DNA from: an uncultured Methanosarcinales archaeon
GTDB lineage: Archaea; Nanobdellota; Nanobdellia; Woesearchaeales; GW2011-AR15
DNA: 64,000 nt
Direction of reading: 5' to 3'
NCBI GenBank assembly: GCA_964441565.1
Contig: CAYTWW010000004.1
Span: forward strand, 35,407-99,406
In this document: piece after piece, positions 10,637 to 62,517 of the stretch
Position numbering within the stretch: position 1 is the first letter of the stretch
How the letters are laid out: each line of letters opens with the position of its first letter
Program-made: the position numbers and the translations under genes
The notes under the pieces: generated by a model
The model's database searches: none
Told to the model about the DNA's origin: nothing
The model's input: only the letters and a program-made list of their open reading frames with translations

Positions 10637-11881
10637 ATGAAGAGACTCTCCGGATTCCTTGCTGATAAGCTTGTCGCAAACTCTCTTCTGCTTATCATCG
10701 ATGCTGGTTTCATGGCAGGAGTAGGTTTCCTGTTCTGGAAGATTGTGACATATTTCCTAGATCCTGCTGAAGTAGGGATAGCTTCCACAGTGCTGTCTGC
10801 AGTGGCATTCCTCGCCAATCTTTCCCTTCTAGGTTTTGACATGGCGATAATCAGGCATCTCGCGAAGGCCGACGACCGGAGGGAACTTACGAGATCCCTG
10901 CTCAGCGCTACCACGATAGCAGCGATTATCGCAGGGGGCCTCTTCCTTGTCCTGACGGATGTTGTGGCGCCTAAGCTTGCGTTCCTTCTCGACCATGCCT
11001 GGCTCGCGGCTGCCTTCATCATGATCGTCGTCTTCAATACTGCCTTCCTGTTCATCGATGCCATTCTGATATCCAAGGGAAACATCTTCCATAAGCTCTT
11101 CAAGACTTCTGTCTTCAATCTGACGAAAGTCGGGACAGTGTTCCTCCTTTTTTCGATGGGCGCAGGAGGGATCCTCATCGGCTACGGAAGCTCAGTCGCT
11201 CTGGCTGTGGTCTTCTCTGTGGCAATGCTTTGGAGGACGCACGGCACAGACAGCATAACCCTGGGCTTCCCTAAGGTGAGTGTCATAAAGGAGTATGCAG
11301 GCCTGTCCTTCGCAAATTTCTTCTCCCGGGTCGTCTCGAACCTGCCGAGCGTGGCTCTACCTCTGATTGTCCTGTATCATCTCACACCAAGCGATGCGGC
11401 ATTCCTCAACATATCTGTCATGCTCTCCTCCATCATAGCAAATGTCTCAAGCGGGATATCTGCATCGCTCTTCTCATCTGGATCTGGCGATGATAACCAT
11501 TCCCCCTATATCAAGAAGAGCATCCTCCTCACTTTCGCCCTTCTCCTGCCGGCAATCGCATTCCTTGTCTTATTCGCAAGGCCGATCCTGGGCTTCTTCG
11601 GCGCAGAATACTCTGAGAATGCGCTTGATCTCTTCCGCCTGCTTTGCATCAGCCAGCTCGGCTTCGCCGTAGAATCGATAATCTTCATCGTCATGAACCT
11701 CAAGAAGGATGGTAAAGGCATAATCTCGATGACTGCTCTTGTAGCCCTCATCACGATCATGTCATCTCTGTTTGTGAAGGATCTCGGCATCGCATGGGTC
11801 GGTGTCTCATACATCATAGCATATGTGGTAGCGATCCTGGTGTTTGGAAACAGGCTGCTGGAGCATATGGACAATGCGTAA
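10637..11881 (+). CDS. Oligo/polysaccharide flippase (MOP superfamily, Wzx/PST-like)
   Basis: 414 aa with ~12 TM and the typical PST-family topology and composition. Confidence 0.65.
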   Translation: MKRLSGFLADKLVANSLLLIIDAGFMAGVGFLFWKIVTYFLDPAEVGIASTVLSAVAFLANLSLLGFDMAIIRHLAKADDRRELTRSLLSATTIAAIIAGGLFLVLTDVVAPKLAFLLDHAWLAAAFIMIVVFNTAFLFIDAILISKGNIFHKLFKTSVFNLTKVGTVFLLFSMGAGGILIGYGSSVALAVVFSVAMLWRTHGTDSITLGFPKVSVIKEYAGLSFANFFSRVVSNLPSVALPLIVLYHLTPSDAAFLNISVMLSSIIANVSSGISASLFSSGSGDDNHSPYIKKSILLTFALLLPAIAFLVLFARPILGFFGAEYSENALDLFRLLCISQLGFAVESIIFIVMNLKKDGKGIISMTALVALITIMSSLFVKDLGIAWVGVSYIIAYVVAILVFGNRLLEHMDNA

Positions 11882-13199
11882 GCGAGTATGGACTTTGATA
11901 GTGGTAGCGGTGGTCGTGCTTGCCTGCCTTCTATTCATCCTCATGCAGGAGGAAAGACCTGTCGAGGTCATCATCCCTCCTGAGCACGTGAAGGCATTCC
12001 CTGGTGCGATCGGCTACGGTTCTGACACGCCTGGAGGAAGAGGCGGCAGGACCATATACGTCACAAGCACTGAAGACAGCGGCCCAGGAAGCCTCAGGGA
12101 AGCGCTCAAGGCTGAAGGCAAGAGGATAGTCGTCTTTGCCGTCGCAGGGACGATACACCTGAAGGAGCCGCTCGATATATCAAGGCCATATGTGACAATC
12201 GCAGGCCAGACTGCCCCAGCACCTGGGATAACGCTTGTCGGAGCACCGATGACAATCAGGACGCATGATGTGATAGTCCGGCATATAAGAAGCAGGCCAG
12301 GGGACGGGCCAGGATTCGATCCAGAGGACAGGGACGGTTTCCAGATACTTGATGCGAAAGATGTCATCCTTGATCATGTCTCAGCGACATGGGCCATCGA
12401 TGAGAACATCGGGCTTTGGTACTCTCCGAGCGATATCACCATACAGGATTCGATAATAGCAGAAGCCCTGTATGAGAGCAGGCATCCTGAAGGGATCCAC
12501 AGCATGGGCCTCTTGGTCGGAGATGGCTCTCAGCGAGTGACTGTCGCACGCAATCTCTTCGCCCACAACAATGAGAGGAATCCTCTTATGAAAGGTGGCA
12601 CAAGGACAGATATCGTCAATAATGTCGTCTATGGCTGGTGCCCGGGAGGATGGGGCACCCATTTCGCTGATCCCGAAGACTCCGGACCTCTCCAGGCAAG
12701 AGTGGTGGCCAACTACTATATCGGTGCAAGGAGATGCACTGCCCCCATCAAGCTCTCTGAGATAGATAAGAAGTCAAGGATATCTGTGACAGGTAATATT
12801 CTTGAAGCACGAGGCTACAAGTCAAGCGCTGACATGGACCTCCTGCGCATCGCATCTCATATCCTGGATGGTGAGCCCGGAATCTTTGATTTTGATATAC
12901 TGTCAGCTGAAGCGTCTTATGATCGTGTGATCAGCTCAGCCGGAGCATTCCCCCGCGACGGCATCGATTCCCGCATTGTCGAAGAGACGCAGGAAAGGAG
13001 AGGAAGCAAGATCGATTCTCCCCCAGAAGGATATCCTGCCCCTGCCGGAATCATCCCACTCTTGGACTCAGACCTTGACGGGATGCCTGACAGCTGGGAA
13101 GAGACCCATGGGCTTGATCCTGCTGATGCCTCAGACAGTGTGGCAGACAGGGATGGCGACGGCTACACGAATATCGAGGAATACATCAACTCTATCTGA
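11874..13199 (+). CDS. Secreted right-handed beta-helix protein, pectate-lyase-like (PL1-type), with C-terminal Ca-binding D-x-D-x-D motifs
   Basis: Internal ATG at 11874 (MRKRVWTLIVVAVVVLACLLFIL signal/anchor). …DGFQILDAKDVILDHVSATWAIDENIG… resembles the vWiDH region of pectate lyases. C-terminal …DSDLDGMPDSWEETHGLDPADASDSVADRDGDGYTNIEEY…. Confidence 0.55.
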   Translation: MRKRVWTLIVVAVVVLACLLFILMQEERPVEVIIPPEHVKAFPGAIGYGSDTPGGRGGRTIYVTSTEDSGPGSLREALKAEGKRIVVFAVAGTIHLKEPLDISRPYVTIAGQTAPAPGITLVGAPMTIRTHDVIVRHIRSRPGDGPGFDPEDRDGFQILDAKDVILDHVSATWAIDENIGLWYSPSDITIQDSIIAEALYESRHPEGIHSMGLLVGDGSQRVTVARNLFAHNNERNPLMKGGTRTDIVNNVVYGWCPGGWGTHFADPEDSGPLQARVVANYYIGARRCTAPIKLSEIDKKSRISVTGNILEARGYKSSADMDLLRIASHILDGEPGIFDFDILSAEASYDRVISSAGAFPRDGIDSRIVEETQERRGSKIDSPPEGYPAPAGIIPLLDSDLDGMPDSWEETHGLDPADASDSVADRDGDGYTNIEEYINSI

Positions 13200-13299: not shown

Positions 13300-13600
13300 G
13301 ATCCTACTATGAAAGGAAGCACCCAGTCCCATGAATGGTTTTATGCAGTGATGGGAGAAAAAAGAATTTTTGAACATTTTTTCCGTCCTGGAAATCTCTT
13401 TTTGCTGGCTCAAGATCAGGGAATACCTTAAAAAAGAGACCTGGAAAAACTGAATCAATTTATTCCGATCACTGCTTCCATTGTGTGATATCGGAACCTC
13501 GGTACTACCAGGACGCAAGTCCTAAGTGCCAGGGGAGAATCGATGCCAAGACTAACGACCTGACTACCTTGGTGATGCCTAGGATCCTGTGTACTAGGTG
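13300..13600. repeat. Copy A of a dispersed composite intergenic repeat family (forward orientation)
   Basis: Shares ordered blocks with loci at 28.2, 39.4-39.8 and 48.7-49.1 kb: GTGATGGGAGAAAAAAGAATTTTT…TCTCTTTTT-loop-AAAAAAGAGACCTGGAAAAAC…TTCCGATCAC, then hairpin unit ACCAGGACGCAAGTCCTAAG and CTACCTTGG. Confidence 0.75.
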
Positions 13601-13629
13601 GGTCAACCCCTTTCTCCTTCCAGGCAAAC

Positions 13630-13640
13630 CTATAAAAACT
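13630..13640 (+). promoter_or_regulatory. TATA-like box (CTATAAAAACT) ~25 bp upstream of the 13664 start
   Basis: Position and composition typical of an archaeal TATA. Confidence 0.35.
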
Positions 13641-13663
13641 CATTCCACATGTATGGCTTTAGG

Positions 13664-13927
13664 ATGGAGACAGCAAAGAGAGATGAGATCCTAGCCAGGA
13701 TACTGGAGCTCAAGAAGAAGCAGGACCCGACAATGCTTGAGAAGCTCAAGGTCATAAGGTTCTACTACAACACTGAGAAGCTTGAGAAGGAGCGCATCTA
13801 CAAGGAAGTGCCCTGGCCAAAGAAAGATGTCGACAGCATCCTCGAGGACCTGGACAAGGAAAGGCAGAAACCACGGCCAAAGAGATATTACGTCAGCCTG
13901 AAAGAGCCGCTTGAAGAAGGATATTAG
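13664..13927 (+). CDS. Small Lys/Glu-rich hypothetical protein (88 aa)
   Basis: ORF track 13598..13927. ATG at 13664 (METAKRDEILARILELKKKQ…) fits the TATA spacing. No recognisable domain. Confidence 0.4.
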   Translation: METAKRDEILARILELKKKQDPTMLEKLKVIRFYYNTEKLEKERIYKEVPWPKKDVDSILEDLDKERQKPRPKRYYVSLKEPLEEGY

Positions 13928-13942
13928 AACATTCTTATAACT

Positions 13943-13955
13943 AAATATAAATAGA
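13943..13955 (+). promoter_or_regulatory. TATA-like box (TAAATATAAATAG) ~27 bp upstream of 13978
   Basis: AT-rich box at the canonical distance from the ATG. Confidence 0.35.
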
Positions 13956-13977
13956 AATTACAAGATATAGTATCTTT

Positions 13978-14661
13978 GTGTTCAATAGTCATGCTAGAAT
14001 TGAGCGAGAGATGCCTTCTTCCTTAAGGACTCATCTTCTAAACAGAGTTCCATCATGGGAGAAGAAGATTGTTGGAAATATTAGAATCTACTTGAAAGAT
14101 CAACTGGATGATTCCTCCATGAATGGATACTATTCTAGCAGTGCAAATAGAATAGTAATAAGGACTGGTTGCGATTATACGAGTACTTTTTTCCATGAAT
14201 GGGGACATGCTTTTGACCACAAAGTCGGCATTCATCTATATAATACAAGGATATCACTGACTGATGAATGGGTTAGGCTGTCACGGAAGCACAGAGAGAT
14301 ACTTAATGAGAAAGGTATACTCTCTCAGTACTGGTCTGCACAGCTTGAAGGAGAGGCCTTTGCTGAGGCTTATAGGAAACTTAGAAGCGGTGAAGAGCTG
14401 CCAAACGACATAAAATCCTTTTTCAATTACCTTGAACATAAGGAAATTCTTGAGCTCAGCGAAAAATTAAGGAGAGACTTTCCCCTTAGTGAGACCCAAC
14501 GTGATAGGAAGCTAAATGAACCACCAAGAGTGCTTAGCCAGTATTCTCGAGAATGGGTTAGTAGGGATCTTAAGGAAAAACTTGACTCTCCAAATACTAA
14601 ATCCAGTCATATCAGTTGGATCTCGGATTTATTTGGCAAGCTTATCAGGCGAAGAAATTAG
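13978..14661 (+). CDS. Putative gluzincin-type zinc metallopeptidase (HExxH…E), compositionally atypical
   Basis: …CDYTSTFFHEWGHAFDHKVG… (HExxH) followed ~50 aa later by …QLEGEAFAEAYRKL… as a candidate third ligand. The ORF is ~40% GC against ~50% for its neighbours. Confidence 0.45.
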   Translation: MFNSHARIEREMPSSLRTHLLNRVPSWEKKIVGNIRIYLKDQLDDSSMNGYYSSSANRIVIRTGCDYTSTFFHEWGHAFDHKVGIHLYNTRISLTDEWVRLSRKHREILNEKGILSQYWSAQLEGEAFAEAYRKLRSGEELPNDIKSFFNYLEHKEILELSEKLRRDFPLSETQRDRKLNEPPRVLSQYSREWVSRDLKEKLDSPNTKSSHISWISDLFGKLIRRRN

Positions 14662-15272
14662 TTTTTGTTCTTGATCCTCTTGGTCCTGAAGATCGTCTCT
14701 CTCTCTTGTTCTTCAAGCCTCAGCTCAATGAAGCTTTTGACCCGCATGAGCTTCGGGATGACCTCGAACTCAAGCGCATTGACTCTCCTCTTTGTCCTGT
14801 CTATCTCAGACAGCAGACGCTTGAGGCTTGTCTCCACCTCAGCTGCCAGCAGGATATATTCAAGCAGCTCCTCATAGGCGCTTGTCGCCTCCATCGCAGG
14901 GATGCTTGGCGACATCAGCCCATATCCCCTGTCCATCAGCTTCTTCTTCTGTATGCTTGAATCTATCTTTGGTACGACCACGCCCATGATGTTCTTTGTC
15001 GTGACAGTCACTTCTGGCTGGTCCTTGATCGCAAGTGCGAGTGAATGCAGCTCAAGGTCGCTGTCCATGACGCGTGCCATATCTACCTTGCTGTGCGCAT
15101 CCTTGTACTTGGCAGCAAGCTCCTTCCTGATGCTCCTTATCCTCTTCAAGACTTCGAAGAACTCGAGGATGAGCCCATCTCTCTTCTTCTTCAGGAGCTT
15201 ATGGCCAGACCTCGCTAATTTGATCCTGTTCTTCAGCTTCATCAGCTCTGAGCGGGTTGGTTTGATATCCAT
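14658..15272 (-). CDS. atpD: A1AO (V/A-type) ATP synthase subunit D
   Basis: MDIKPTRSELMKLKNRIKLARSGHKLLKKKRDGLILEF… is the typical coiled-coil subunit D. It is the last gene of the H-I-K-E-C-F-A-B-D operon. Confidence 0.85.
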   Translation of the reverse strand: MDIKPTRSELMKLKNRIKLARSGHKLLKKKRDGLILEFFEVLKRIRSIRKELAAKYKDAHSKVDMARVMDSDLELHSLALAIKDQPEVTVTTKNIMGVVVPKIDSSIQKKKLMDRGYGLMSPSIPAMEATSAYEELLEYILLAAEVETSLKRLLSEIDRTKRRVNALEFEVIPKLMRVKSFIELRLEEQERETIFRTKRIKNKN

Positions 15273-15413
15273 GTTCTTCTTTCACGAGGAAGCTTTTGGC
15301 TTCCAGTGCCCAGGAAATCCCGGATTTCCTTGGGCTTTGACTCCACCTTTCTTTGGAAGATTCAAAGAAAGGTGGATTCTCTGGGTTCTTTGTCTTTTAT
15401 TGTATGTTAGAAT

Positions 15414-24770: not shown

Positions 24771-25049
24771 ATCTTCAATTTTTCTTGTTGTATAATTCTG
24801 CTTCAGTTCCATGGACTCATTCCATCAAACTGGAACACAATCTTTGGACACTCTCACTTGGAAGTCTGGATCCAAGGATCTCAAGATTCTTCGAACTTGC
24901 ACTTTTGAAAAAAAGAGCAGATATTCAGGCACTAGATATCTTCTGTTTCCTTGGATGCTTCTTATGCAAAGTGACAACCGATCATCCAACTTTTCATATC
25001 ATTACCGAGAACCAAGGTTCTCGGTCTCTCCTCGTGTCTGCGAATTTCA

Positions 25050-25445
25050 CCGCAGCTGCACAAAGCAGAATCATCAGGCAAAGCAATCGTGTGCACCTGC
25101 TTTGGAAATTGAGATTTTTTGAGAATCTTAGCATTGTTGGAATCAACAGACCGAAGGCATATCACATCACGCTGATGAATGATGACTTCTACCGCCTATC
25201 TATGGTGACTTGGCTGCCTGGCCATACTGCCTCGCCGACCGCCTGGGCTGAATCTGGACGCATACGCTGCAACGAAAAGCAGCTGCACAAAGCAGAGTAT
25301 CAAGCTGAGCATCTCTTTATCTGCTTTGGAATTCGTCAGTCTTTCGTTATCCTTTGCACTCATTGCAACATCAGACCGGAGGCCATCAAATCCAATTGAT
25401 GAATGATGACTTCTGTCCAGCTTGTCTATGGTCACTTAGGCCACC
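25050..25445. repeat. Two tandem direct-repeat units (~225-bp period) in a ~0.8-kb non-coding region
   Basis: Both units begin with GCAGCTGCACAAAGCAGA (25052, 25279) and end with CAGACCG(A/G)AGGC…TGATGAATGATGACTTCT…CTATGGT(G/C)ACTT(G/A)GG (25147, 25372). The middles have diverged. A perfect hairpin CCGAGAACC-AA-GGTTCTCGG precedes them at ~24997-25016. Confidence 0.6.
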
Positions 25446-28204: not shown

Positions 28205-28410
28205 GACTTTACCAAGGTTCCGATTGCTAGCAATCTCGCTGATCGGAATTAGACAACGTCGTTAAGTTTTTCCAGTTCTCTTTTTTAAGGCTGTCACCCG
28301 AATGTGGAGCTAGTAAAAAGAGATTTTCAGGACGAGAAAAGACGAACGACTTTTTTTAACTCCATCACTGCACAAATAGCTTGATAGGGGAGCCTCTGGT
28401 GCTTCTTCTT
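28205..28410. repeat. Copy B of the dispersed composite intergenic repeat (reverse orientation relative to copies A/D)
   Basis: …GATCGGAATTAGACAACGTCGTTAAGTTTTTCCAGTTCTCTTTTTT-loop-AAAAAGAGATTTTCAGGACGAGAAAAGACG…CACTGCACAAATAGCTTGATAGGGGAGCCTCTGGTGCTTC aligns to the reverse complement of 48725-48925. Confidence 0.75.
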
Positions 28411-31306: not shown

Positions 31307-31468
31307 CCATTTTCTTTGGCTCCACCTTTATTTTATGGTTTAAAAGAAAGGTGGAATCTTTAGAATTATTCAAAGGAGAGCTTGCCATCAGAGAAAAAGT
31401 AGGACTTATTTTCTTCATACATGCTAAACTTCGTTACCATTAAATACACCTCCCTCCTCCTTTACTTC

Positions 31469-39374: not shown

Positions 39375-39830
39375 ACTACTACCAAGGCATTATTCCTCTC
39401 TAGTTTCTCGTGGTGCTCGTAGTACTTTGTTTTTCCACAGATCAGAGAAGAGATTTTTCAAGAAGTGAAGAGACTGTTGCTTTACTCACTGCACATCAGA
39501 GCGTGATATGGGAGCCTCTGGCACTTATGGCTTCACAGAATCACCAAGGTGCTCAGGACTTTTCGTCCTGGCACCCACTAGGGTGGCCAAGACGAAGTCT
39601 TGGTATCACTCGAAGTATCTCGTGATTCCGATCTGATTGATTACCAAGGCACTGAGGACTAGCGTCCTGGTAGCACCAAGGCTTCCGATATTGCGCGATG
39701 GAAGCAGTGATCGGAATTAAGCAATGTCTTTTTCTTTTCCAGCTCTTTTTTCTGATTATCAGTATGAAATAAAGGCTCATTTACACCTACAGGAGCCTCT
39801 GGTGCTTCTTTCCAGGTGAATGAAGCCAAC
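39375..39830. repeat. Copy C of the dispersed composite intergenic repeat (rearranged, partly inverted)
   Basis: TATCACTCGAAGTATCTCGTGATTCCGATCT (39603-39633) matches the reverse complement of 48905-48935 exactly. Hairpin units GCTCAGGACTTTTCGTCCTGGC and CACTGAGGACTAGCGTCCTGG. Two GGGAGCCTCTGG(C/T)(A/G)CTTC boxes (39510, 39792). …GATCGGAATTAAG…TTTTCCAGCTCTTTTTT…. Confidence 0.75.
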
Positions 39831-48659: not shown

Positions 48660-49135
48660 TAATTCAGATTCGGGAACCAGATTTTTCAGGGTATCAGGAC
48701 GAAAATCCACCTTGTGATGCCAGCAACAGAAGTGCCAGAGGCTCCCATGCCACCTAATTGTGCAGTGACGGGAGTAAAAAGAATTTTTCGTCTTTTTTTG
48801 TACTGAACATCTCTTTTTTTTGAAAGTCTACGCTTCTAAAAAAAGAGAGCTGGAAAAACAAAAGACGACAATTTCTTCCGATCGGCGAGATCGCTCACGC
48901 CGAAGATCGGAATCACGAGATACTTCGAGTGATACGAGGACGCAGTCCTTAGTACCTTGGTAATCAATTAGATCGGAAGTCACGAGACAGTCGAGTGATG
49001 CCAGGACGAAAAGTCCTCAGCACCACGAGTACCACGAGTGGCACCAGGACCAAGTCCTAAGTGTCACGAGAGAATCGAGTGATACCCAGTACGCTAGTCC
49101 TAAGTACCTTGGCGAATGTCGCGAAGAATTCAGCG
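48660..49135. repeat. Copy D (longest) of the dispersed composite intergenic repeat
   Basis: It contains all modules. There is the GCCAGAGGCTCCC box, then GTGACGGGAGTAAAAAGAATTTTTCG…, the hairpin CTCTTTTTTTT-GAAAGTCTACGCTTCT-AAAAAAAGAGAG, CTGGAAAAAC and TTCCGATCGG. It also carries four hairpin units: ACGAGGACGCAGTCCTTAG, CCAGGACGAAAAGTCCTCAG, CCAGGACCAAGTCCTAAG and GCTAGTCCTAAG. GTACCTTGG recurs twice. Confidence 0.8.
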
Positions 49136-52210: not shown

Positions 52211-55200
52211 CTACATTCTGAGCAGCTCGTAGACCTGCTTCTCCTGCCGAATCATCTTCAGGGATGAGAACAGCTCAGACCTGGTGCTGCATGGGATCTC
52301 CAGGCAGTGCTGGTCAAGGAATGACCTGATCTCTCCACTGTTCCTGTAATACTCGTACTCATTGTCAGCCATGTATGGAAGCGCCAGATACAAGCCCTCA
52401 AGGCTATGGAGAGGGAGCCCTGACAAGAGCTGCAGAGGCATCTCAGCCTTCTTCCGGAAGTCCAGGTTTATCACATTCTCAGGCAGTTTGAGGACAGAGC
52501 TCTTCTGAGGTTCGAATTCTCCCAGATAGATATTGTATAGCACCCTGTACATCTCGAGCCTGGAGTCAGATGACATGAGGACCTTTGCGACATCAGGCCT
52601 CCCGACAGACTCTGAAACCCACTGCTGAACAAGGCTTGTGTTCGAGAGCATCCTGAAGCTGTCCTCGCTCATCGCATGCAGGTGTCTGGCAAAGTCATAG
52701 AGAGTATGGGCCTCGCTGCCCTCGGGAAGGACAAGAGGCCTTGCTGCCTTCTTTGTCATGAGCTTTCCGTCTGCTGGCCTTTTCTTGTGTCCCCCTCTGC
52801 CGAAGATGAAGAAGAGTATCGAGCAAAGTAGACATACGACCAAAAAGCCGATTATCGCATCAGCGTGGCTGTTCTTTGCCTGCTTCGGCTCTTCGATCGA
52901 GGAGGACTTCTCTTCGAGCCTCACTTCCTGCTGCTCAGGTACGACAGGTATGGAAGGCTGCTCCATCACAGGAGGACTTGATGTCTTTTCGATTATCTCT
53001 GGTTCTGGCTCTGCTTTTACCACAGATGAACGGCTGAAGCTGCCTCCACCGCCGCCACCACCGCCGCTGCCTCCGCTGCCTCCGCTGCCGCCACCACCGC
53101 CGCCGCTATCACCGCCGCTTTCCTCCTCTTCGACAGCAGCAGTTGCAAGGCTGTATTCAGTGAAATGAGGCACATCAAAGCTGACATTCTCACCTAGCGA
53201 GATGTTCTCGCATATCGGGCAAGGCAGGCCGTCTTTTAGTATGACAGGGTCTGCGAGAGTGACATGGTAGAATGTAATCCTTGCGCTGCGGTTGAGGACT
53301 GGCACCAGTGAGGAATTGATGTATACCTTCCTATCCTCTATCCCGACAAATGAATCCAGGTCGACTGCAGTGACATTGACCTCTCCTCTCAGATTTATCC
53401 TGCCATGGTCAGATATCTCTAGCGTGATCCCCTCGAAAGTCAGGTTGTTCCTATTGAAGTCAGTAGTATGTCCATCAAACTTAGATGCATTCGGATAACC
53501 GGGATCATTGCTCCTTGTTCGTAGGTTGTGGACACCTGAGCTGTAAGCATTCCCATATCTATCAGTCCCATTCACCTTCCAATAATAGTCAGTGTCATTC
53601 TCAAGACCAGTGGCTGTCATCTGGTGGCTTGTGGCCTTTGCTGTGGAATGGAGATAGCTGGGAGCTGACAGGTCCGCATATGTCGAGATGAAGAGGCTAG
53701 CATTCCCTGATTCGTTCAGCGTAAGAGATACCCTGAACCTGTCTGATGAGATGGAGTTGTTCGATATCGCTATGATCGCAGGCGGAGTGATGTCCTCTGG
53801 CTCATTCTCAAGAGTCCGGAAGAAAGAGCTGTTGGTTATGCAGTTATTGTGCCTGTCGCACGTCGTCACATTGAAGTCATAAATAGCGTTGGCTGTCAGG
53901 TCTTGAAAAAAAAAAGTATGCACAGTAGTATAGACTGAGTCGACGACTGTGCCAAGGATCGTCCAGATGGTAGAGTTCGTGGCCTCATTTGTGATGATTG
54001 TGATCTGGCCAGTCTGGTTTGTCGTGATATTCTGATGGATCAACTCAGGATAGCTGATATCCTCCCCGGAACCGGTGATCACATAGTAGTTCGAGTTCTG
54101 GCCGGTTGTTATGTCGAAAGTCACCATGTTGCCTGAGACTGAGAGGACAGGCACGTCAGATCCATCGTCCTTCGTGATTATGAATCCCTGGGTCAGCGAA
54201 AGGTCAGAGCAGTCCACAGTCACTCTCCTTGTCTTAGGTACATCGATATACGGATCCCGCTCCATCGTGTTGGCTGTGAGGACTATTCTTTCTGACGAGA
54301 CCCTGAGATGTGCCTGTGTAGGTTGGTCTGATTCGAATAAAGTTTTTTCTCCGTCATGTATGTATGTTGCATTGAATGCAGCTATCTCTCCAGCCGAATA
54401 TGCGAGCGCCCATCCATCAGTCGACTTGCCTGCATAGGATACTGTTCCATCATTGTCTCCGTCAAAGAGGACTGTGTTCCCTCCGTCAATGAGGCCTTTC
54501 TCAGTCCCATTGATAGCAGTCACTCCCTCTTCAGAGAAGGTGTTCCAGTGATGCGAGAATACAAGGTCCAGGGAAGGATCGCCGATGTCTGTGTAGTAAT
54601 AGCGCCTCCCATACTTGCCGAGGCCTCTGGACCCGCCTGAACAGCTTGTCTTGGAGAAGCAGTAATTTACATTGGTCCTCCCTCCGCCGAAATACACTGG
54701 CGAATCAGAATAGATGAGCTGCGTGGACAGGAAGATGTCCTGGCCAGTCGCAGCATTAGTCCTCCTCGCAGTCCAGTTGAGCCCGCTCACAGTAGATGCG
54801 AACTCATCATCGATGTTGATGAAGTTGTGATAGATGCGGTCCCCCTGCGTCACACCTGACACCTTTGTCCTCTTGACCACTGTGTCGCCGAACTTCACGA
54901 AATACTCCTTCACAGGATCAGCCTTGTAGTACGGACGCCACACGAATGCGCCGGCGAGATTCGCGTCCGCAGTACCCATGTAATCCTCGATGTCGCCGCC
55001 GTACTGCAGTGGAAACTGGCGGAAATTAGGATAATCGGCAGGATAAAGTGCTGGATCACATGTTTTCATTCCATAATACTGGTTTTGTCCATGTTCTCCA
55101 CATTCAGACCTGTAATAGCTTACTAACCCCTCGACATTCTGTGTGTCGTTCGCTAAGCTGATTCCATTTTTCCAGAAATCTGCCCTTGTATCATCTTCAT

Positions 55201-57613
55201 ATGGGACTTGCTCGTAATCAATAAATGGCTCCCCCAGGATATAAAGATAATAGCCCTGAGCTTGGGAGTGTCCCATCCCTCTTTCCTCACCACCATCAAT
55301 CATCAGAAAAGTGTCATTGGAGAAAGTATAGTTCGTCCTCACAATCAAGGTGTCTTCTGCATTGTCAAATACGATTTTTGGCATAGCAGACTCTGGAGCC
55401 TCTTCAGAATCAACTGAGTCAAGGATCTGCTTGTAGAGATATGAGAGAGGATATGTTCTCATGGCACTCGATTCAGATATGTTGAAAGCATACTGTCTAA
55501 TCCAAAGTGATGTCTTCTTAGTGTTCAGGTCATCGCACATCAGAGCAAAGAAAAGCGGAGTATCCCACCCTGTGAACAAGCTGTCGTCGATCTTCTGATA
55601 GCTGTTTGAATCTCCTTTTTGCACTGACCTAAGGTAAAAAGGCTCATCATTTCTGGAATCTGACCCTTTGTAGTTACCATCAAGCAGCATAACAATATGC
55701 TCTCTTGCCATAGCACAAAAGGCATTATTATACTCTTCAATATCTATGAGCGAGTTCCGATATCTCATCCAAAGGACATCAGCTAGGTGAGGAAAAGCAT
55801 AAGTTCTGTAACCATATCCTTCCTGATACATATGCCAGGAGTCATTCTTGTATGACTGAAGTATCTTGTCTTCCCTGTCCATCCATTCATCTGGTATGTT
55901 CTTGCCCCAGTACTGGTCGCTGAGATTATGGATAAGAGTAGGGTTCTCGGCATACTCTCCGATGAAGCTATAGCAGAATCCACCCATCCCTGATCCAAAA
56001 GCCAATCCATTGTCCCCTGCAATCAAAGCGTCATTGTCGAGATCAGGGCGATCTCCGGGATGGTTAACGAACAGCTGGCAGATATCATGAGCTTTTCGCG
56101 AAAGATCCTCCTGCTCCTCTTGTGTAAAATAGGGAACCATCATATCATAGGCAATAGCAACATGAAGGTATTGATGGAACGCCTGGTTGGAAGTGAATGA
56201 CGAGAGGCTCCTGTTCAGCCAGCCATGTATGTGATCACTTGCAACCTTACAATTGTTTGTGTTTTCATATCCATTATGCATACAACTCATTGCAGCCTGG
56301 CGTGCATTCACAGCATAGGGGTCAGCGCTGTCTCCTGAATATCCTTCATTCCAGTCGGAGGATACAAAGTTATTAATCCAATTGCAGGAGTCATAAGCCA
56401 CCTCGTTTTCTGGATCAGAGCAAAAAGGGATGTAGGAATTATACTCATCAAGTGAGAAATGAAACCATGGCCTGTCCTTGAAGGGGATGTAGATCCTTTG
56501 GGCATTGTTATCCTCAACATCCTCCTCTACACTATCGTCAGTATCAATCTTAACAAATCCTGAATGCCATCCATATGACTTCTCCCAATTGCATATTATC
56601 TCTGTTTCTTCCATCCCTGAAAGAGAAAGGCTGTCTTCACATAAAACAGTTCCATCCATATCCACTTTGTAGACGAAGGGTCCGGTTGGCTCTGATCCAG
56701 CGTTCCTTATAATGATTGAGAGAGGCATTTCACCTATTGGATCTAGAAGATTACTTCCAGTGTAGTCTCGTGGCAAGGTGTACCTGATAGATTTAACATA
56801 AATATCTTTTTCAGGAGGCGAACCAAGTCGTTCCTCATTGTAAATTGCCTGGACATCTAATGTAGAGAAATTGCTTCTTCTCCAGATTCTCAGCTCATCT
56901 AGGTAACCTACAATATCCTGAGAAAATATCCCTGCTCCAACTCTTAGCATGCTCCCAGAAGTCATATTTGGGGTACCGAAGGGTGTGCTTGAATTCACAA
57001 CCAGTTCTCCGTTCTTCCATACATAGCTCCTCTGTTTGTCATATTGTAGGAAGTAGAAAGTCCATTGATCTGTAGGTGACTCCTGAGTATCCCCTGGAAA
57101 AGCTTTCACTTCACCTCCTTGCGCCCATACATGAAGGTTCATCCCATAGCCTGCTTCAGTCACATGCAGGTATTTAGGCCCTCCACAGCATCCTTCATGC
57201 CCGATATCCATAATGTCAAAAGAGTTTGCTCCTGAGACCGAAATAGTTGGATATAACCAGAAAGCCACTGCAATGCCGTCCGAAAGCTGAAATTTACTGG
57301 ATGAGTTGAGATAGTCAGCACCACCATCAGCAGAGAAATCAGCGCACCCGTTAATCTTGGATTGTGCTCTATCAAGCCATTCACCTGAGCGAAATGGAGT
57401 AAACTCGTGATCGTAGCCGGAATAATCCGTCCATGGCGATGAAGAATCATCGAAAGTCAGGTTCAGTACAAGATCAGATGAAAATGAGGAGCTAGCGGGA
57501 AAAATCACAAAGGCATCAGGTTTGAAACCAAGGAGATACACCACAGCCAGGCATGCACTGACAAGAAAGATGAGTGCAAATATTTTGAATATCCTTATTC
57601 CCCCTGCCATCAA
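52211..57613 (-). CDS. Giant (1800 aa) type-I membrane surface protein with an N-terminal LamG/ConA-like domain, a polysaccharide-lyase-like (heparinase II/III-like) central region, a Gly/Ser linker, a single TM and a ~190-aa cytoplasmic tail
   Basis: N-terminal signal/anchor MMAGGIRIFKIFALIFLVSACLAVVYL. …EEEESGGDSGGGGGGSGGSGGSGGGGGGGGSFSR… linker. TM AIIGFLVVCLLCSILFFIF followed by a basic stop-transfer. Domain calls are inferred from sequence patterns only. Confidence 0.5.
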   Translation of the reverse strand: MMAGGIRIFKIFALIFLVSACLAVVYLLGFKPDAFVIFPASSSFSSDLVLNLTFDDSSSPWTDYSGYDHEFTPFRSGEWLDRAQSKINGCADFSADGGADYLNSSSKFQLSDGIAVAFWLYPTISVSGANSFDIMDIGHEGCCGGPKYLHVTEAGYGMNLHVWAQGGEVKAFPGDTQESPTDQWTFYFLQYDKQRSYVWKNGELVVNSSTPFGTPNMTSGSMLRVGAGIFSQDIVGYLDELRIWRRSNFSTLDVQAIYNEERLGSPPEKDIYVKSIRYTLPRDYTGSNLLDPIGEMPLSIIIRNAGSEPTGPFVYKVDMDGTVLCEDSLSLSGMEETEIICNWEKSYGWHSGFVKIDTDDSVEEDVEDNNAQRIYIPFKDRPWFHFSLDEYNSYIPFCSDPENEVAYDSCNWINNFVSSDWNEGYSGDSADPYAVNARQAAMSCMHNGYENTNNCKVASDHIHGWLNRSLSSFTSNQAFHQYLHVAIAYDMMVPYFTQEEQEDLSRKAHDICQLFVNHPGDRPDLDNDALIAGDNGLAFGSGMGGFCYSFIGEYAENPTLIHNLSDQYWGKNIPDEWMDREDKILQSYKNDSWHMYQEGYGYRTYAFPHLADVLWMRYRNSLIDIEEYNNAFCAMAREHIVMLLDGNYKGSDSRNDEPFYLRSVQKGDSNSYQKIDDSLFTGWDTPLFFALMCDDLNTKKTSLWIRQYAFNISESSAMRTYPLSYLYKQILDSVDSEEAPESAMPKIVFDNAEDTLIVRTNYTFSNDTFLMIDGGEERGMGHSQAQGYYLYILGEPFIDYEQVPYEDDTRADFWKNGISLANDTQNVEGLVSYYRSECGEHGQNQYYGMKTCDPALYPADYPNFRQFPLQYGGDIEDYMGTADANLAGAFVWRPYYKADPVKEYFVKFGDTVVKRTKVSGVTQGDRIYHNFINIDDEFASTVSGLNWTARRTNAATGQDIFLSTQLIYSDSPVYFGGGRTNVNYCFSKTSCSGGSRGLGKYGRRYYYTDIGDPSLDLVFSHHWNTFSEEGVTAINGTEKGLIDGGNTVLFDGDNDGTVSYAGKSTDGWALAYSAGEIAAFNATYIHDGEKTLFESDQPTQAHLRVSSERIVLTANTMERDPYIDVPKTRRVTVDCSDLSLTQGFIITKDDGSDVPVLSVSGNMVTFDITTGQNSNYYVITGSGEDISYPELIHQNITTNQTGQITIITNEATNSTIWTILGTVVDSVYTTVHTFFFQDLTANAIYDFNVTTCDRHNNCITNSSFFRTLENEPEDITPPAIIAISNNSISSDRFRVSLTLNESGNASLFISTYADLSAPSYLHSTAKATSHQMTATGLENDTDYYWKVNGTDRYGNAYSSGVHNLRTRSNDPGYPNASKFDGHTTDFNRNNLTFEGITLEISDHGRINLRGEVNVTAVDLDSFVGIEDRKVYINSSLVPVLNRSARITFYHVTLADPVILKDGLPCPICENISLGENVSFDVPHFTEYSLATAAVEEEESGGDSGGGGGGSGGSGGSGGGGGGGGSFSRSSVVKAEPEPEIIEKTSSPPVMEQPSIPVVPEQQEVRLEEKSSSIEEPKQAKNSHADAIIGFLVVCLLCSILFFIFGRGGHKKRPADGKLMTKKAARPLVLPEGSEAHTLYDFARHLHAMSEDSFRMLSNTSLVQQWVSESVGRPDVAKVLMSSDSRLEMYRVLYNIYLGEFEPQKSSVLKLPENVINLDFRKKAEMPLQLLSGLPLHSLEGLYLALPYMADNEYEYYRNSGEIRSFLDQHCLEIPCSTRSELFSSLKMIRQEKQVYELLRM

Positions 57614-58638
57614 TCCTTAAAAGAAGTATGCTGTATAAAAAACTTGCTTAAAATACCCCTGGCAACACCCTCAGCGTATCTCGCTGAAACAGCAATTAGA
57701 AGTGCAGCGATGAACATCAGGATCATTCTAACAGGGAAGGGGAATATTGATACTGCAGAAGTAACAATTGAAAAAACTGTGAAATGAGTTAAGAAAAGAT
57801 AAAGAGAAAGCTTTCCAATCTCTTCCAGCAAGGGTGCCCGCATATCTCTGAGAAAAGAATAGAGTAATAGAAACAGGCTGATTGTAAGTGCTTGCTGACC
57901 AATGATCAGGAAAAGTGAGTCTACAAGTGTTGAAATGATTGATAGAATAAGAATGCAAAAGTATAGAGAAACCTGTTTTGATGAAATCAGCCTGGAGGAA
58001 AAATGAAAAACAAGTACCCCAAATACAAGCTCTGATAATCTTGAAAAAATAAGAACCCTATACCAGAGGTCTGAGCTGGGATTAGAAAGAAAAATCAGCA
58101 TTCTAGTGATAATTGACAATGCAATGCAGCCAATGCCTGTCGCTCTAGGATACTTTCTATAAAATCCGACAAGACCAGGGAAGAATATTATGATGGAGAG
58201 TAAAAGAGTGATGTACCACCAACTGCCATCAACAGCACCGGAATACTGAAGGAAAAAACCATGTATTCCGAGAAGATGTAGCAGAATTGCGCCTGGCGTT
58301 AGGTAAAGTCTTCCTTTGAGGATAAGAGGGAATACTATGAACATCAGGAGAAGCGTCCAATACAGGGGTAGAATACTAAGTATCCTTTTTCGTAGCCAGT
58401 TACGATAATCATTGTTCCTTGAGAAATTGACTCCTGCAACAATGATGAATAACCCCACACCTGCATATCCGAGTGACATAATAGTCATCAGGAGTGAAGT
58501 AGTATTTCCTCTTAAAAAATCCAGTAACAAACCCTTGGCCAGAGGCCAATTATAAGACATACCAAACGCATGGAACAGCATCACCAAAAGGATTGCTATA
58601 CCCTTAATCTTGTCTATTGTGTGATCTCTTCCTGTCAC
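57610..58638 (-). CDS. Acyltransferase family 3 (membrane O-acyltransferase, OatA/WecH-like)
   Basis: …IDKIKGIAILLVMLFHAFG… is the typical AT3 N-terminus. 10 TM. Confidence 0.75.
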   Translation of the reverse strand: MTGRDHTIDKIKGIAILLVMLFHAFGMSYNWPLAKGLLLDFLRGNTTSLLMTIMSLGYAGVGLFIIVAGVNFSRNNDYRNWLRKRILSILPLYWTLLLMFIVFPLILKGRLYLTPGAILLHLLGIHGFFLQYSGAVDGSWWYITLLLSIIIFFPGLVGFYRKYPRATGIGCIALSIITRMLIFLSNPSSDLWYRVLIFSRLSELVFGVLVFHFSSRLISSKQVSLYFCILILSIISTLVDSLFLIIGQQALTISLFLLLYSFLRDMRAPLLEEIGKLSLYLFLTHFTVFSIVTSAVSIFPFPVRMILMFIAALLIAVSARYAEGVARGILSKFFIQHTSFKD

Positions 58639-59351
58639 TTCTGAACCTTAATCTTACCTAGCCTGAATCTGAGTTCCGCAGAGTTTTTGATATAGTCTCT
58701 TACAGTCTTCCCTATCTTTACCGTGCTACCTGAATCATCTATCCAGTCAACAGGAATCTCTTTTATCTTGAAACCTATTTTTTCAGCAATCAATAGCAGC
58801 TCAGTATCAAAGAAGAATTCATTGTCTTTTATGAATGGTTCCAGTTTCATGAACACTTCTTTTCTGACTCCTTTAAAACCGCATTGCATATCATGTATCT
58901 TTGTAAAGTAGAAAGCCTTAATGAGAGCATTATACCCCCTTGATAAAACCTCTCTCTTGAATCCTCGCTGTACAACTGAACCTTTGATTAGTCTGGATCC
59001 CACAACAATGTCTGCTCCCTGTGAAAATTCTCTCAGCATGCACGGAAACGCATCCAGACTTGTCGATAGGTCTATGTCCATGAATGTCAGTATGTCGCAA
59101 TCACTCTCCTTCCATACCGTTCTGAGGGCAACTCCCCTTCCCTTTATAGGGATCCGCACATATTTAACAAATGGAAATTCCCTTGAGATCCTTTCCATCA
59201 CTGCGGGAGTATTATCCGTGGAGGCATTATCAGCAACCACTATCCGGCATACAGTAATGTGCATTTTTTTGAGAAATTCAATCGTAGACCTGATGCTCTT
59301 TTCCAATGTTTCTGCTTCATTATATACCGGAAAAGTAATGAGGACATCCAT
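58635..59351 (-). CDS. GT2 glycosyltransferase (dolichyl-phosphate hexose transferase-like)
   Basis: MDVLITFPVYNEAETL…, …VVADNASTDNT…, …DIDLS… (DxD). Confidence 0.8.
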   Translation of the reverse strand: MDVLITFPVYNEAETLEKSIRSTIEFLKKMHITVCRIVVADNASTDNTPAVMERISREFPFVKYVRIPIKGRGVALRTVWKESDCDILTFMDIDLSTSLDAFPCMLREFSQGADIVVGSRLIKGSVVQRGFKREVLSRGYNALIKAFYFTKIHDMQCGFKGVRKEVFMKLEPFIKDNEFFFDTELLLIAEKIGFKIKEIPVDWIDDSGSTVKIGKTVRDYIKNSAELRFRLGKIKVQK

Positions 59352-59426
59352 AATGCGTAAAAAGAGAATACAATATAAAAGGGTTTCGAATTAGTGACTT
59401 TGATAGTAAAATTATAATATTAGTGA

Positions 59427-61088
59427 TTGTTCAGAAGGTCTGTGAACAAAATTGCTGCTGCAGTAGCCTATCTCTTAATGGCTTTACTGTTCACGTTTCC
59501 ACTTGTTTTTAACATAAGTTCAATGATGGTAGGAGTTGAGGAAGACAACTACCAGTTCTTGTGGAATATGTGGTGGATGAAGAGGTCGCTATTTCGAGAG
59601 GATCTACTACATACGGATATGTTATTCTATTCTCATGGCGCTGACCTTACATATCACTCCCTGACTTACTACAACTCAATAATCTCAATAGCTCTGCAGC
59701 CATTTTTCCCTCTACCAGTCATATACAACTTACTGTCAATACAGATACTTGTCTTATCAGCATTCTTCACGTACCTTCTTGTATTGGAACTGACCCAGGA
59801 AACAAAATCTGCATTTCTAGCTGGCGCATTTTTCGGTTTCTCACCCTATCTTTTGATGAAGCTCTCCCATCATCTCAATATTGCGAGCGTCCAGTTCATC
59901 CCGCTGACACTGCTCATGATGCTGCGGATAAGCAAAAATCCTAGATTCTCAAATGCGGTATACCTTTCACTCTCATTTCTGCTCGTTACACTTTGCGACT
60001 GGCATCATGGTCTGATCACAGGATTATTTATGCTGTTATTTTTCTTATTCCAATTTTATAGAGAAAGAAGCTTTTACATTATTAAGTACTTAGCTTTCTC
60101 TTGCTTAATTTTTGTAGTTCTGATTGCCCCTTTTGCTTTTCCACTGCTAAAAGGGTTGAACAGTTTTGATGAGCTTCAGATGGGTGGATATGACTATAAC
60201 AAGCTGGATCTCTTATCAATAGCTGTTCCATCCTATGATCAGAGCATATGGGGAAGGTTTTTTCGCCCACTTTATGAACGATTTGAAGGCAATGACTGGG
60301 AGAATGTAGCTTTCATCGGAATAGTCCCAGGTATCTTATTAGTTCTTTATGTCTACAAAAAAAAATATCCGGATATCTGGATATCAATGTTCATCGTATT
60401 TTATGTGCTATCGCTTGGATCACACCTTGGTGTCTTTGGCCACTCTGTGCTTAATCTCAAGGGGCAGACAATGAGCACATTATGGTTTTCAGATCACCTT
60501 CCGGACATTTCTTTAAGGATTCCCCTTCCCTTTATGTTGATTCAAAACCTTCCGTTTTTCAGCATTATCCGCACTCCCAACAGGTTCGTGATAATTGCAT
60601 ATCTTATGGCTGCTGTCATGCTGGCATATTCAGTAAAAGAAATTTGCCAGGGGAAAAGATATCTTCACTGGCTTCTTCTGTTCCTAATAATTTTTGAGTT
60701 TATTGCAATTCCATTTCCGCTGAGCAGAATTGAGGTTCCAGAAGCATATTCCTCACTGGGAATGGGGAGTCAGCCAATTATTGAGTTTCCCTCAGATAAC
60801 TACAAATCTGATGCAAAATATATGTTCTATCAAACGTACCACGAGAGGCCAATATTATCAGGATACGCCTCAAGGTCAGGTGAGACAGAAAAGTGGCTTT
60901 CTCTTGCCATTAACAGGACACTATTGTCTGAGCCAGATGCCTTCAGGAAATATGTCGGGGAGCTGAATGTCAGCCATATCCTTGTTCACAAAAATCTTCT
61001 CACATTGGACGAGCAATTTGCAGCAGAAGAAAGCTTAAAAGGTTTGGAAAAAACATCCTATGGTGATATTGATGTCTATAGAACATAA
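59427..61088 (+). CDS. Polytopic membrane protein (YfhO/GT-C-like), glycan-processing candidate
   Basis: 553 aa, ≥12 TM. Contains an A10 homopolymer at ~60353-60362 encoding KKK. Confidence 0.45.
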   Translation: MFRRSVNKIAAAVAYLLMALLFTFPLVFNISSMMVGVEEDNYQFLWNMWWMKRSLFREDLLHTDMLFYSHGADLTYHSLTYYNSIISIALQPFFPLPVIYNLLSIQILVLSAFFTYLLVLELTQETKSAFLAGAFFGFSPYLLMKLSHHLNIASVQFIPLTLLMMLRISKNPRFSNAVYLSLSFLLVTLCDWHHGLITGLFMLLFFLFQFYRERSFYIIKYLAFSCLIFVVLIAPFAFPLLKGLNSFDELQMGGYDYNKLDLLSIAVPSYDQSIWGRFFRPLYERFEGNDWENVAFIGIVPGILLVLYVYKKKYPDIWISMFIVFYVLSLGSHLGVFGHSVLNLKGQTMSTLWFSDHLPDISLRIPLPFMLIQNLPFFSIIRTPNRFVIIAYLMAAVMLAYSVKEICQGKRYLHWLLLFLIIFEFIAIPFPLSRIEVPEAYSSLGMGSQPIIEFPSDNYKSDAKYMFYQTYHERPILSGYASRSGETEKWLSLAINRTLLSEPDAFRKYVGELNVSHILVHKNLLTLDEQFAAEESLKGLEKTSYGDIDVYRT

Positions 61089-62517
61089 AAAGTATAGGAT
61101 CTTGTTGCTACTGGCAATTGTCGGTCTTCTTCTAAGGCTTTACCTACTGGACAAGCAAAGCCTCTGGAATGATGAGGCTGATGAAGTTATGCTTCTGAAG
61201 CGATCAAGCCTTTTCCAGCTTGCCACAGGTGAAGAGTTCGACCAGAGCCATCCTCCACTATATCATCTTGCTCTTGGAGCATGGACTTCCGTCTTTGGAT
61301 ATAGTCGTTCATCGGTAAGATTACCTTCTGTTCTGTTTGGAGTAGCTGCTATCATAGGCACTTACTTCATTGGAAAACTCATTTTTAATACAGAGACTGC
61401 TCTTGCTGCAGCTTTTCTTCTTGCGATTTCCCCTTTCCATATAATGCAGAGCCAAATTGTAAGACCATATGGACTCCTGATATTGTTAGGTATCATCAAT
61501 CTCTACTTCTTCTTCAAGTATAGAGATACAAAAAAAAAACTTTACCTTTTGGCTTTCACGGTAACCGCAATCCTCATGAATTATACCCATTATTTTGCTG
61601 CACTACAGATCGCAACGCTTAATGCAGCCCTTATACTGTGGCACAGGCATGCTTTTGATCGGAGATGGATTATGGCAAACATTATTATCGCACTCGCATC
61701 TTTGCCTCTTATTGCCTTGATATCAAAGGGGCTTGGACAGGGAGCAGGTGCGAGGACTTTTTTTAGCCCTCTTGAAATTGCCTATCTTGCCCAGATGTTC
61801 TCGATTGGGTCAGCAGGTTTCATTTTCAAGTTATCAACACTAAAGGAAGATATTATTGCCCACCTGCCAGTGCTGGCTATAACAGCAGCCGCCTATGGAT
61901 ACTTGCTCCTTACATTTGTCAGGGACTTCAGCAGATGGAAGAAGAACAATAACATTACGTTGTTGATTTTCTTCATACTTATGCCAACAATATTGCTCTA
62001 TGTTTCAGGGTTTGTTTACCCCTTATTTCGTGCAAGGTATCTATCATTCATCTATCCTGCTGTTGTACTTATCATCTCCTATGTAATAGCGAACCTGTCC
62101 AGACCTAAACTGGCTTTTACTGTTATTGCGGGTCTAAGTATCTTCTCGCTGTCCAGCTACTACTTTTCATATCAGAGCGAACCATGGGAACAGATCTGCG
62201 AATATATTGAAGCTAATGGAGATCAAGGAGACCTTATCCTTGCTTCTAGGACAAAGCCTTTCGCATACTGCTATTCAGGAACTGCTCGTCACCAATTCAT
62301 CCTTGATATGGATGAAGACCAGATTTTGGCATATCCTTCTATTTGGTTGGTCCTTTCCAACTACCGACAAAGCTATGCTCACGAGACAGAAGAGCTGAAG
62401 GATATACTTAATGCGAGCTATAGAACAGTAGATGAAAGGTTTTTCAAAGATGACATGAACATCATATCCGGAGACATAATTGTGTATCATTTCATAAGAA
62501 GTAGTAACTTACAATGA
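61060..62517 (+). CDS. GT-C glycosyltransferase of the ArnT/PMT (GT39/GT83-like) type
   Basis: First extracytoplasmic loop …LYLLDKQSLWNDEADEVMLLKRS… (DE motif), polytopic. Contains an A10 tract (~61535-61544). Confidence 0.55.
   Translation: MVILMSIEHKKYRILLLLAIVGLLLRLYLLDKQSLWNDEADEVMLLKRSSLFQLATGEEFDQSHPPLYHLALGAWTSVFGYSRSSVRLPSVLFGVAAIIGTYFIGKLIFNTETALAAAFLLAISPFHIMQSQIVRPYGLLILLGIINLYFFFKYRDTKKKLYLLAFTVTAILMNYTHYFAALQIATLNAALILWHRHAFDRRWIMANIIIALASLPLIALISKGLGQGAGARTFFSPLEIAYLAQMFSIGSAGFIFKLSTLKEDIIAHLPVLAITAAAYGYLLLTFVRDFSRWKKNNNITLLIFFILMPTILLYVSGFVYPLFRARYLSFIYPAVVLIISYVIANLSRPKLAFTVIAGLSIFSLSSYYFSYQSEPWEQICEYIEANGDQGDLILASRTKPFAYCYSGTARHQFILDMDEDQILAYPSIWLVLSNYRQSYAHETEELKDILNASYRTVDERFFKDDMNIISGDIIVYHFIRSSNLQ

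Follow-up and report, generated by a model that had tools for sequence, protein, structure and literature searches.

The locus considered here lies in a stretch of 64,000 nucleotides from the contig CAYTWW010000004.1 (assembly GCA_964441565.1) of an uncultured archaeon that GTDB places in the Woesearchaeales, and this whole stretch is referred to below as the window. In the short spacer between two convergent genes, a small conserved gene and atpD, the final gene of the A-type ATP synthase (atp) operon, we found an orphan open reading frame (ORF) for a metallopeptidase-like protein, hereafter the zincin protein. We propose, with a probability of roughly 0.6, that a Woesearchaeota-like DPANN archaeon took up one foreign gene, ~730 bp long with its promoter, and that the predicted product of this gene is a soluble minimal gluzincin resembling anthrax lethal factor (Pfam family ATLF, MEROPS family M34). 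The features that bear on this proposal are the following, with residues numbered as in the 227-amino-acid (aa) form of the protein and with P0002 and P0003 standing for two bacterial relatives described further below.

13978-14661, plus strand: orphan gene for a putative minimal gluzincin, 227 aa from GTG or 216 aa (P0001) from an alternative ATG at 14011, without a hydrophobic segment.
13943-13953, plus strand: TATA-like box aaatataaata, a predicted element ~25-35 nt upstream of the GTG at 13978.
14194-14208, plus strand: HEWGH (H73-E74-x-x-H77), predicted zinc ligands and catalytic Glu, aligning with H686-E687-x-x-H690 of lethal factor.
14329-14331, plus strand: Tyr118, candidate equivalent of Tyr728 of lethal factor, the Tyr being kept in P0002, P0003 and lethal factor.
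14347-14373, plus strand: EGEAFAEAY helix with E126 as predicted third zinc ligand, aligning with E735 in NEAEFFAEAF of lethal factor.
14380-14658, plus strand: basic hydrophilic C-terminal tail of ~90 residues without detectable homologue, isoelectric point 9.7 over the last 81 residues.
13928-14657, plus strand: inferred inserted segment of ~730 bp, promoter and zincin ORF, delimited by empty sites in relatives and by third-position GC content (GC3) of 0.37 against 0.69 and 0.70 in the flanks.
13664-13927, plus strand: native small conserved gene, the left flank outside the insert, 87 aa, GC3 0.69, C-terminal KPRPKRYYVSLKEPLE.
14658-15272, minus strand: atpD, subunit D of the A-type ATP synthase, the right flank outside the insert (Pfam ATP-synt_D, E = 3e-53).

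The frame is intact and so is its H-E-x-x-H...Y...E constellation. The ORF shows the GC1 > GC2 > GC3 order of a coding sequence (0.449/0.383/0.370), and the chance of 227 stop-free codons at its base composition is ~4e-7, as estimated from base frequencies. Gene callers chose the ATG at 14011, and hence the 216-aa form, on five metagenome contigs that carry the gene, and the TATA-like box stands as far from the start as those of many other genes of the window do. At the other end the stop codons of the two convergent genes overlap (TAG at 14659-14661 on the plus strand, TAA of atpD at 14658-14660 on the minus strand). In all this the locus is as it had been described in the first-pass annotation, made from the sequence alone, which listed a 227-aa ORF at 13978-14661 with both metallopeptidase motifs and its own upstream TATA box, a stop abutting the end of atpD on the other strand, and, ahead of the ORF, a small Lys/Glu-rich ORF and one copy of a repeat.

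The composition of the gene sets it apart from its surroundings. Its GC content is 0.401, and that of the interval 14001-14500 is 0.404, as against ~0.47-0.55 in the flanks; its GC3 of 0.370 is tied lowest among the 63 ORFs of the window and lies 3.6 standard deviations below the mean of 50 core window ORFs (0.613 +/- 0.067, z = -3.6), while its Karlin-type codon-usage distance is 0.58 (z = +3.7 against the same 50 ORFs). Thus the impression that the ORF is AT-richer than its neighbours holds, and the gene is an outlier within the window by both GC and codon usage. Because both flanking genes are typical in GC3, the compositional boundary is sharp, and the deviant stretch comprises 13928-14661 only, not the whole of 13300-14661.

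Comparison with relatives places the same boundary. Neither tblastn nor hidden Markov model searches found a homologue of the zincin at any of 109 (57 + 52) related atpD loci from genomes and metagenomes, so that no orthologue occupies the same position there. The 227-aa protein is confined to five metagenome contigs (L001-L005), which, since they differ from the window at only 1-10 positions over 2-21 kb, belong to the same organism. In nine relatives (L006, L009, L010, L015, L022, L025, L032, L053 and L087) the site is empty, the small gene and atpD lying from 31 nt apart to 20 nt overlapping. An empty site had been suggested between a pectate-lyase-like gene and atpD; empty sites do exist, but at the junction of the small gene and atpD. 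The insert fills the gap between these two native convergent genes exactly and, because the small gene is native and adjoins atpD in relatives, the acquired segment is 13928-14657 and consists of one gene. From the outlying composition, the absence from related atpD loci and the nine empty sites, all of which are read from sequence, we conclude that the metallopeptidase-like gene was very probably acquired horizontally, as the first-pass annotation had suspected. The cassette of 13300-14661 that it drew, with the small Lys/Glu-rich ORF as a part of the cargo, does not stand, and the earlier model is corrected here in that this neighbour is a conserved native gene.

The small gene belongs to a family of ~80-95-aa proteins in Woesearchaeota, with an almost invariant C-terminal KPRPKRYYVSLKEPLE, which sits beside atpD in at least 14 related lineages and is always oriented convergent to it. 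In the window its probable true start is the ATG at 13664, giving 87 aa, and it carries its own TATA-like box at ~13629-13637; it matches nothing in Pfam or the PDB and no helix-turn-helix (HTH) domain. All 10 differences between the metagenome contig L004 and the window fall within 13630-13708, the interval that holds the small gene's promoter and 5' end; the adjacent zincin ORF and atpD are identical.

In five further lineages the same gap is filled by unrelated genes of 0.9-2.7 kb, as follows.

L014: a 273-aa protein with a weak carbonic-anhydrase-like match.
L037: a 255-aa protein without Pfam match, its GC3 below that of its neighbours.
L060: a Trans_reg_C protein.
L086: an occupant of ~1.5 kb.
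L007: two ORFs.

Several of these occupants are orphans. They are not zincins and are mutually unrelated, and a cargo shared among lineages at this junction is therefore rejected.

As to what the gene encodes, HMMER run exhaustively over 1.84 billion representative proteins found the zincin protein itself and one other sequence, P0002 (E = 5.8e-4), the two being ~30% identical over ~90 residues. Word-indexed searches, whether they started from the protein, from a two-sequence profile or from a three-sequence core profile, found only the protein itself, P0002 and, weakly, P0003. P0002 is a 229-aa membrane-anchored bacterial protein whose gene adjoins a sortase gene on a short contig; with 35.4 bits on the Pfam ATLF model, for a cut-off of 27.4, it is a bona fide member of that family, and it also weakly matches Peptidase_M90 (E = 0.0012). 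P0003, with a signal peptide and the same motifs, reaches 24 bits on ATLF. An HMMER search with the 227-aa protein, to which the first-pass annotation had left the choice of family, thus gave a single match to an ATLF member and no significant match in Pfam or NCBIfam.

Among structures, the protein used alone as a phmmer query against all PDB sequences retrieved lethal factor and no other family (E = 0.002-0.11), the best match being 2L0R, a 106-residue fragment of its catalytic region (E = 0.002), and a three-sequence profile found lethal factor at E = 6e-7. In an hhalign comparison with P0002, P0003 and a lethal factor fragment, the probability was 97.6% (E = 3.6e-12) over 89 columns that include both motifs, whereas with ten phage proteins of Peptidase_M78, the family of ImmA and IrrE, it was 87.5%, and the 49 aligned columns run out a little beyond the HExxH helix. 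Because the first alignment spans the whole core and the second stops after the HExxH helix, we file the protein as a gluzincin of the lethal factor type. The link to ATLF is transitive, through P0002 (35.4 bits) and through hhalign. The similarity is best explained by a lethal-factor-like (MEROPS M34-like) minimal gluzincin, short of formal Pfam membership. Of the three families that had been suggested for the protein, a toxin-type zincin accordingly fits best, in the form of a lethal factor relative. Similarity to ImmA/IrrE exists over the N-terminal half of the core and not beyond it, and there is no HTH partner; the SprT-like suggestion is dropped, no such family appearing among the Pfam or NCBIfam matches at E <= 1.

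Lethal factor binds zinc through H686, H690 and E735 and uses E687 and Y728 in catalysis (we checked this numbering against the alignment). The zincin protein shares with it the HExGHxxD helix and, after a comparable distance, the E-x-x-A-E-A helix of the third ligand: E126 lies 49 residues after H77, and the corresponding spacing in lethal factor is 45. A tyrosine, Y118, stands 8 residues before E126 (7 in lethal factor, 8 in P0002), although in the gapless phmmer alignment it is W119, one residue on, that faces Y728. The nearest homologue likewise fits this family, in that a gene beside a sortase gene is the context expected for PPEPs. These Pro-Pro endopeptidases of Firmicutes are secreted and release sortase-anchored adhesins (PMC8610288). 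Unlike lethal factor and the PPEPs, which are secreted or surface-anchored, the zincin protein has no hydrophobic N-terminus, signal peptide or membrane anchor; its maximum Kyte-Doolittle mean over 19 residues is 0.07, compared with 2.7 in P0002 and 1.6 in P0003, and since it has no signal peptide it is probably cytoplasmic. It differs from them also in covering about half of the ATLF domain below the Pfam threshold, in its archaeal host and in its novel basic C-terminal tail, which is predicted, with low confidence, to be helical. An AT-rich bacterium was probably the donor, given that no relatives could be detected other than ATLF-like proteins of bacteria, secreted or anchored in the membrane.

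On this basis we propose the following course of events. The foreign gene together with its promoter would have landed in the short spacer between the native convergent small gene and atpD. In the encoded protein, residues ~48-136 would make up the catalytic core of a minimal gluzincin of the anthrax lethal factor type. Predicted beta-strands there run into the HEWGH helix, whose H73 and H77 would hold the zinc, with E74 as the presumed general base that activates water. An intervening helix would then lead to the GEAFAEAY helix, from which E126 would supply the third zinc ligand, and Tyr118, just before that helix, is the likely transition-state-stabilising residue, as in lethal factor. The basic tail of ~90 residues without homologues would follow the core. 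We infer from the sequence a folded, zinc-binding enzyme that would have a specific protein or peptide inside the cell as its substrate.

Several observations weigh against this proposal. Pfam and NCBIfam give nothing significant for the zincin protein, ATLF itself being unlisted at E <= 1; the protein falls below the gathering score of Pfam PF07737 (ATLF) over its ~190-position domain, and of the 193 positions of the model roughly the C-terminal half alone is covered, for which reason the protein is possibly a truncated remnant. The best single library match is phrog_87 (E = 3.6e-7), a phage family of another kind, as is discussed below. The AlphaFold2 models are unusable (pLDDT, the predicted local distance difference test score, of 36 from the single sequence and 43 from a three-sequence alignment), and a Foldseek search of the PDB with the pLDDT-43 model, itself unusable, gave no match at E < 0.9. 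Across the five contigs the zincin ORF shows zero differences and, because there is no polymorphism inside it, a ratio of nonsynonymous to synonymous substitutions cannot be formed. The composition statistics are those of the 64-kb window and not of the whole genome. Finally, the related genomes are distant: in genome and metagenome scans with AtpD, identity reaches at most 69%, the relatives being metagenome-assembled genomes labelled Woesearchaeota, Nanoarchaeota or archaeon GW2011_AR15, and with the closest genomes at only 69% AtpD identity the gain cannot be dated.

One rival reading is that the gene is an inactive or decaying remnant, namely a 5'-truncated piece of a gene for a bacterial secreted ATLF-like protease, from which the parts for the signal peptide and for the first half of the domain would be gone, and which would read on into new sequence as far as the atpD stop and be kept by chance and not for a function. 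The half-covered ATLF model, with just 36 residues before the core, agrees with this, as do the N-terminal transmembrane or signal segment and the 60-100 extra residues of P0002 and P0003 that are missing here, the tail of ~90 residues without homologue, the overlap with the atpD stop, as if the frame had run to the end of the insert, and the lack of variants among the contigs from which selection could be shown. Yet an open frame of 227 codons at 40% GC is improbable unless maintained (the ~4e-7 estimated above), the residues of the catalytic site are all intact, the TATA-like box stands at the normal distance from the start, and samples from five or more metagenomes carry the gene in identical form. 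Moreover, a core of this size can fold, since zincins of ~110 aa with a three-stranded sheet are folded proteins (PMC3890501). The core proposed here is comparably small, with few strands and two ligand helices, but no sequence similarity was detected to those mini-zincins, which are Asp-zincins (HEXXHXXGXXD). On balance we regard a remnant as unlikely.

An origin among regulatory proteases of the ImmA/IrrE type (MEROPS M78), by analogy with the ImmA of phages and integrative and conjugative elements, which cleaves ImmR, and with IrrE, which cleaves DdrO, would make the protein one that cuts a transcriptional repressor on some signal. It is phrog_87 that brings this reading forward, since we followed it to the ImmA/IrrE (Peptidase_M78) proteases that phage lysogeny modules carry: among the family's members, the protein of Enterococcus phage EH-TP1 counts as a Peptidase_M78 by Pfam, is encoded in a lysogeny module beside a regulator and an integrase, and aligns with the zincin protein in a pairwise BLASTP comparison at E = 2e-7. 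To this may be added the hhalign probability of 87.5% given above, the small size and the cytoplasmic location, probable for the zincin protein, that it shares with ImmA and IrrE, and a similar strand-turn-strand element followed by the HExGH helix. The likeness ends there, after 49 columns. The third-ligand segment of the M78 proteins, KMEKEAEEF, lies ~27 residues after HExxH and faces RLSRKHREI in the zincin protein, without a conserved Glu, while the Glu helix of the zincin protein, different in position and sequence, is found 49 residues downstream, near the 45 of lethal factor. Furthermore, Pfam Peptidase_M78 (PF06114) gives no match at E <= 1, and no gene of the HTH/XRE type that might encode a substrate is adjacent, the only same-strand neighbour being the small gene, which matches no HTH or other Pfam family and occurs in relatives without the zincin gene. 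The absence of M78 structures from the PDB matches of the zincin protein is uninformative here, because the phage ImmA-like protein itself matches no PDB structure. Taken together, these points make the M78 reading unlikely.

A third cytoplasmic zincin for comparison is MtfA (Peptidase_M90), which resembles lethal factor. It is an earlier case of a zincin that works in the cytoplasm on a regulator or together with one, but the zincin protein itself gives no M90 match, and only P0002 does so, weakly.

For a mobile or defence-related origin, which the first-pass annotation had favoured, the searches came back empty. At the insert no target-site duplication, terminal inverted repeat or flanking repeat was found; there is no tRNA in the window, no integrase or transposase accompanies the insert (a single ORF), and no Rfam family lies in or near it. 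PADLOC-DB has no defence family for the protein at E <= 1, and we reject assignment to a defence system for this reason. Scans of IMG/VR with the core profile and with P0002 returned no relatives, tblastn against phages and plasmids gave only matches at E = 3-7 that were driven by the HExxH region, and P0003 had no match among plasmids. That the gene came as the cargo of a mobile element, or serves by itself in defence or as a toxin, is thus very improbable: its foreign composition, its restriction to one lineage, the different genes at the same junction elsewhere and weak, non-significant tblastn matches (E ~4) in the metalloprotease domains of conjugative-plasmid ArdC/LtrC-type proteins are set against a single gene with no antitoxin or sensor partner in the insert, none of the hallmarks just listed and no significant relatives in viral, phage or plasmid collections.

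The repeat that had been taken as the edge of the insert belongs to a dispersed family, whose copies in the window are these.

13340-13543, plus strand: repeat copy A, a dispersed intergenic repeat, parted from the insert by the native small gene.
28229-28406, minus strand; 39486-39810, minus strand; and 48689-49112, plus strand: the other copies, intergenic, 70-95% identical.

The family is modular, with four copies in 64 kb, and contains a TTCCGATC...GATCGGAA palindrome together with repeated AGGAC(N3-4)GTCCT hairpin units. Compared with shuffled versions, copy A has a somewhat better fold (z = -2.4), the family has no Rfam match, and it may represent an element like a miniature inverted-repeat transposable element or a structured RNA. 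Copy A is real; as a boundary of the insert, however, it is rejected, as it lies on the far side of the native small gene. It stands at a break in synteny, for in relatives the gene found upstream of the small one encodes an A24 peptidase.

The wider setting can be described briefly. The A-type ATP synthase operon is complete in the window, on the minus strand, and upstream of the insert there is a polysaccharide locus, with a flippase-like gene at 10637-11881 and a PelZ-like pectate-lyase fold at 11844-13199 according to Pfam and NCBIfam. AtpD, by its matches to the genomes named above, places the source among DPANN archaea of the Woesearchaeota type, and the GC content of this archaeon, ~50%, exceeds the 29-40% measured at related loci. 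A near-perfect palindrome of 38 nt, GACTCCACCTTTCTTTGG...CAAAGAAAGGTGGA, occurs twice, at 15339-15376 in the spacer between atpB and atpD and at 31321-31358 downstream of a gene ending at 31306, and the two copies could be terminator or processing hairpins. A second and larger AT-rich block lies at 57610-63812, its GC3 ranging over 0.37-0.43 and its codon-usage z from +2.3 to +3.7. Besides two ORFs without Pfam match, it holds genes for an Acyl_transf_3 acyltransferase and for two glycosyltransferases, one of GT2 and one PMT_2-like; it is probably a horizontally acquired surface-glycan island whose composition resembles that of the zincin gene. Likewise, a 204-aa ORF at 24785-25399 on the plus strand (GC3 0.47, codon-usage z = +3.2, no Pfam match) may be a further foreign or orphan gene. 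A giant surface protein is probably encoded by the minus-strand ORF of 1800 aa at 52211-57613, which has Laminin_G_3 and weak CARDB domains and, at 53039-53118, a GC-rich 9-nt tandem repeat.

Taken as a single-gene horizontal transfer, the zincin gene is a real but fairly ordinary case. Going further, one may think of two linked readings, namely that the protein is the first example of a domesticated cytoplasmic zincin of the lethal factor kind in DPANN archaea and that the junction is a recurrent site of gene capture; we put them forward as a speculative pair with little probability. In the first, a zincin that lost its signal peptide and gained a basic tail could have as its substrate a specific protein of the cell itself or, once passed from cell to cell, a protein of the host. 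In the second, single genes may settle again and again at the convergent junction of atpD and the small gene in Woesearchaeota without the signature of a recombinase, six different occupants being found among ~15 lineages.

What the acquisition proposed here offers is a clean and well-bounded case in which a reduced DPANN genome gained one gene horizontally. For the family, the protein would be an extremely divergent, cytoplasmic and archaeal addition to the lethal-factor-like zincins, which are otherwise secreted bacterial toxins and adhesin-releasing proteases. Should the protein not be active, its general importance would be limited; if it is active, its target could reveal a lineage-specific proteolytic step in regulation or in symbiosis.

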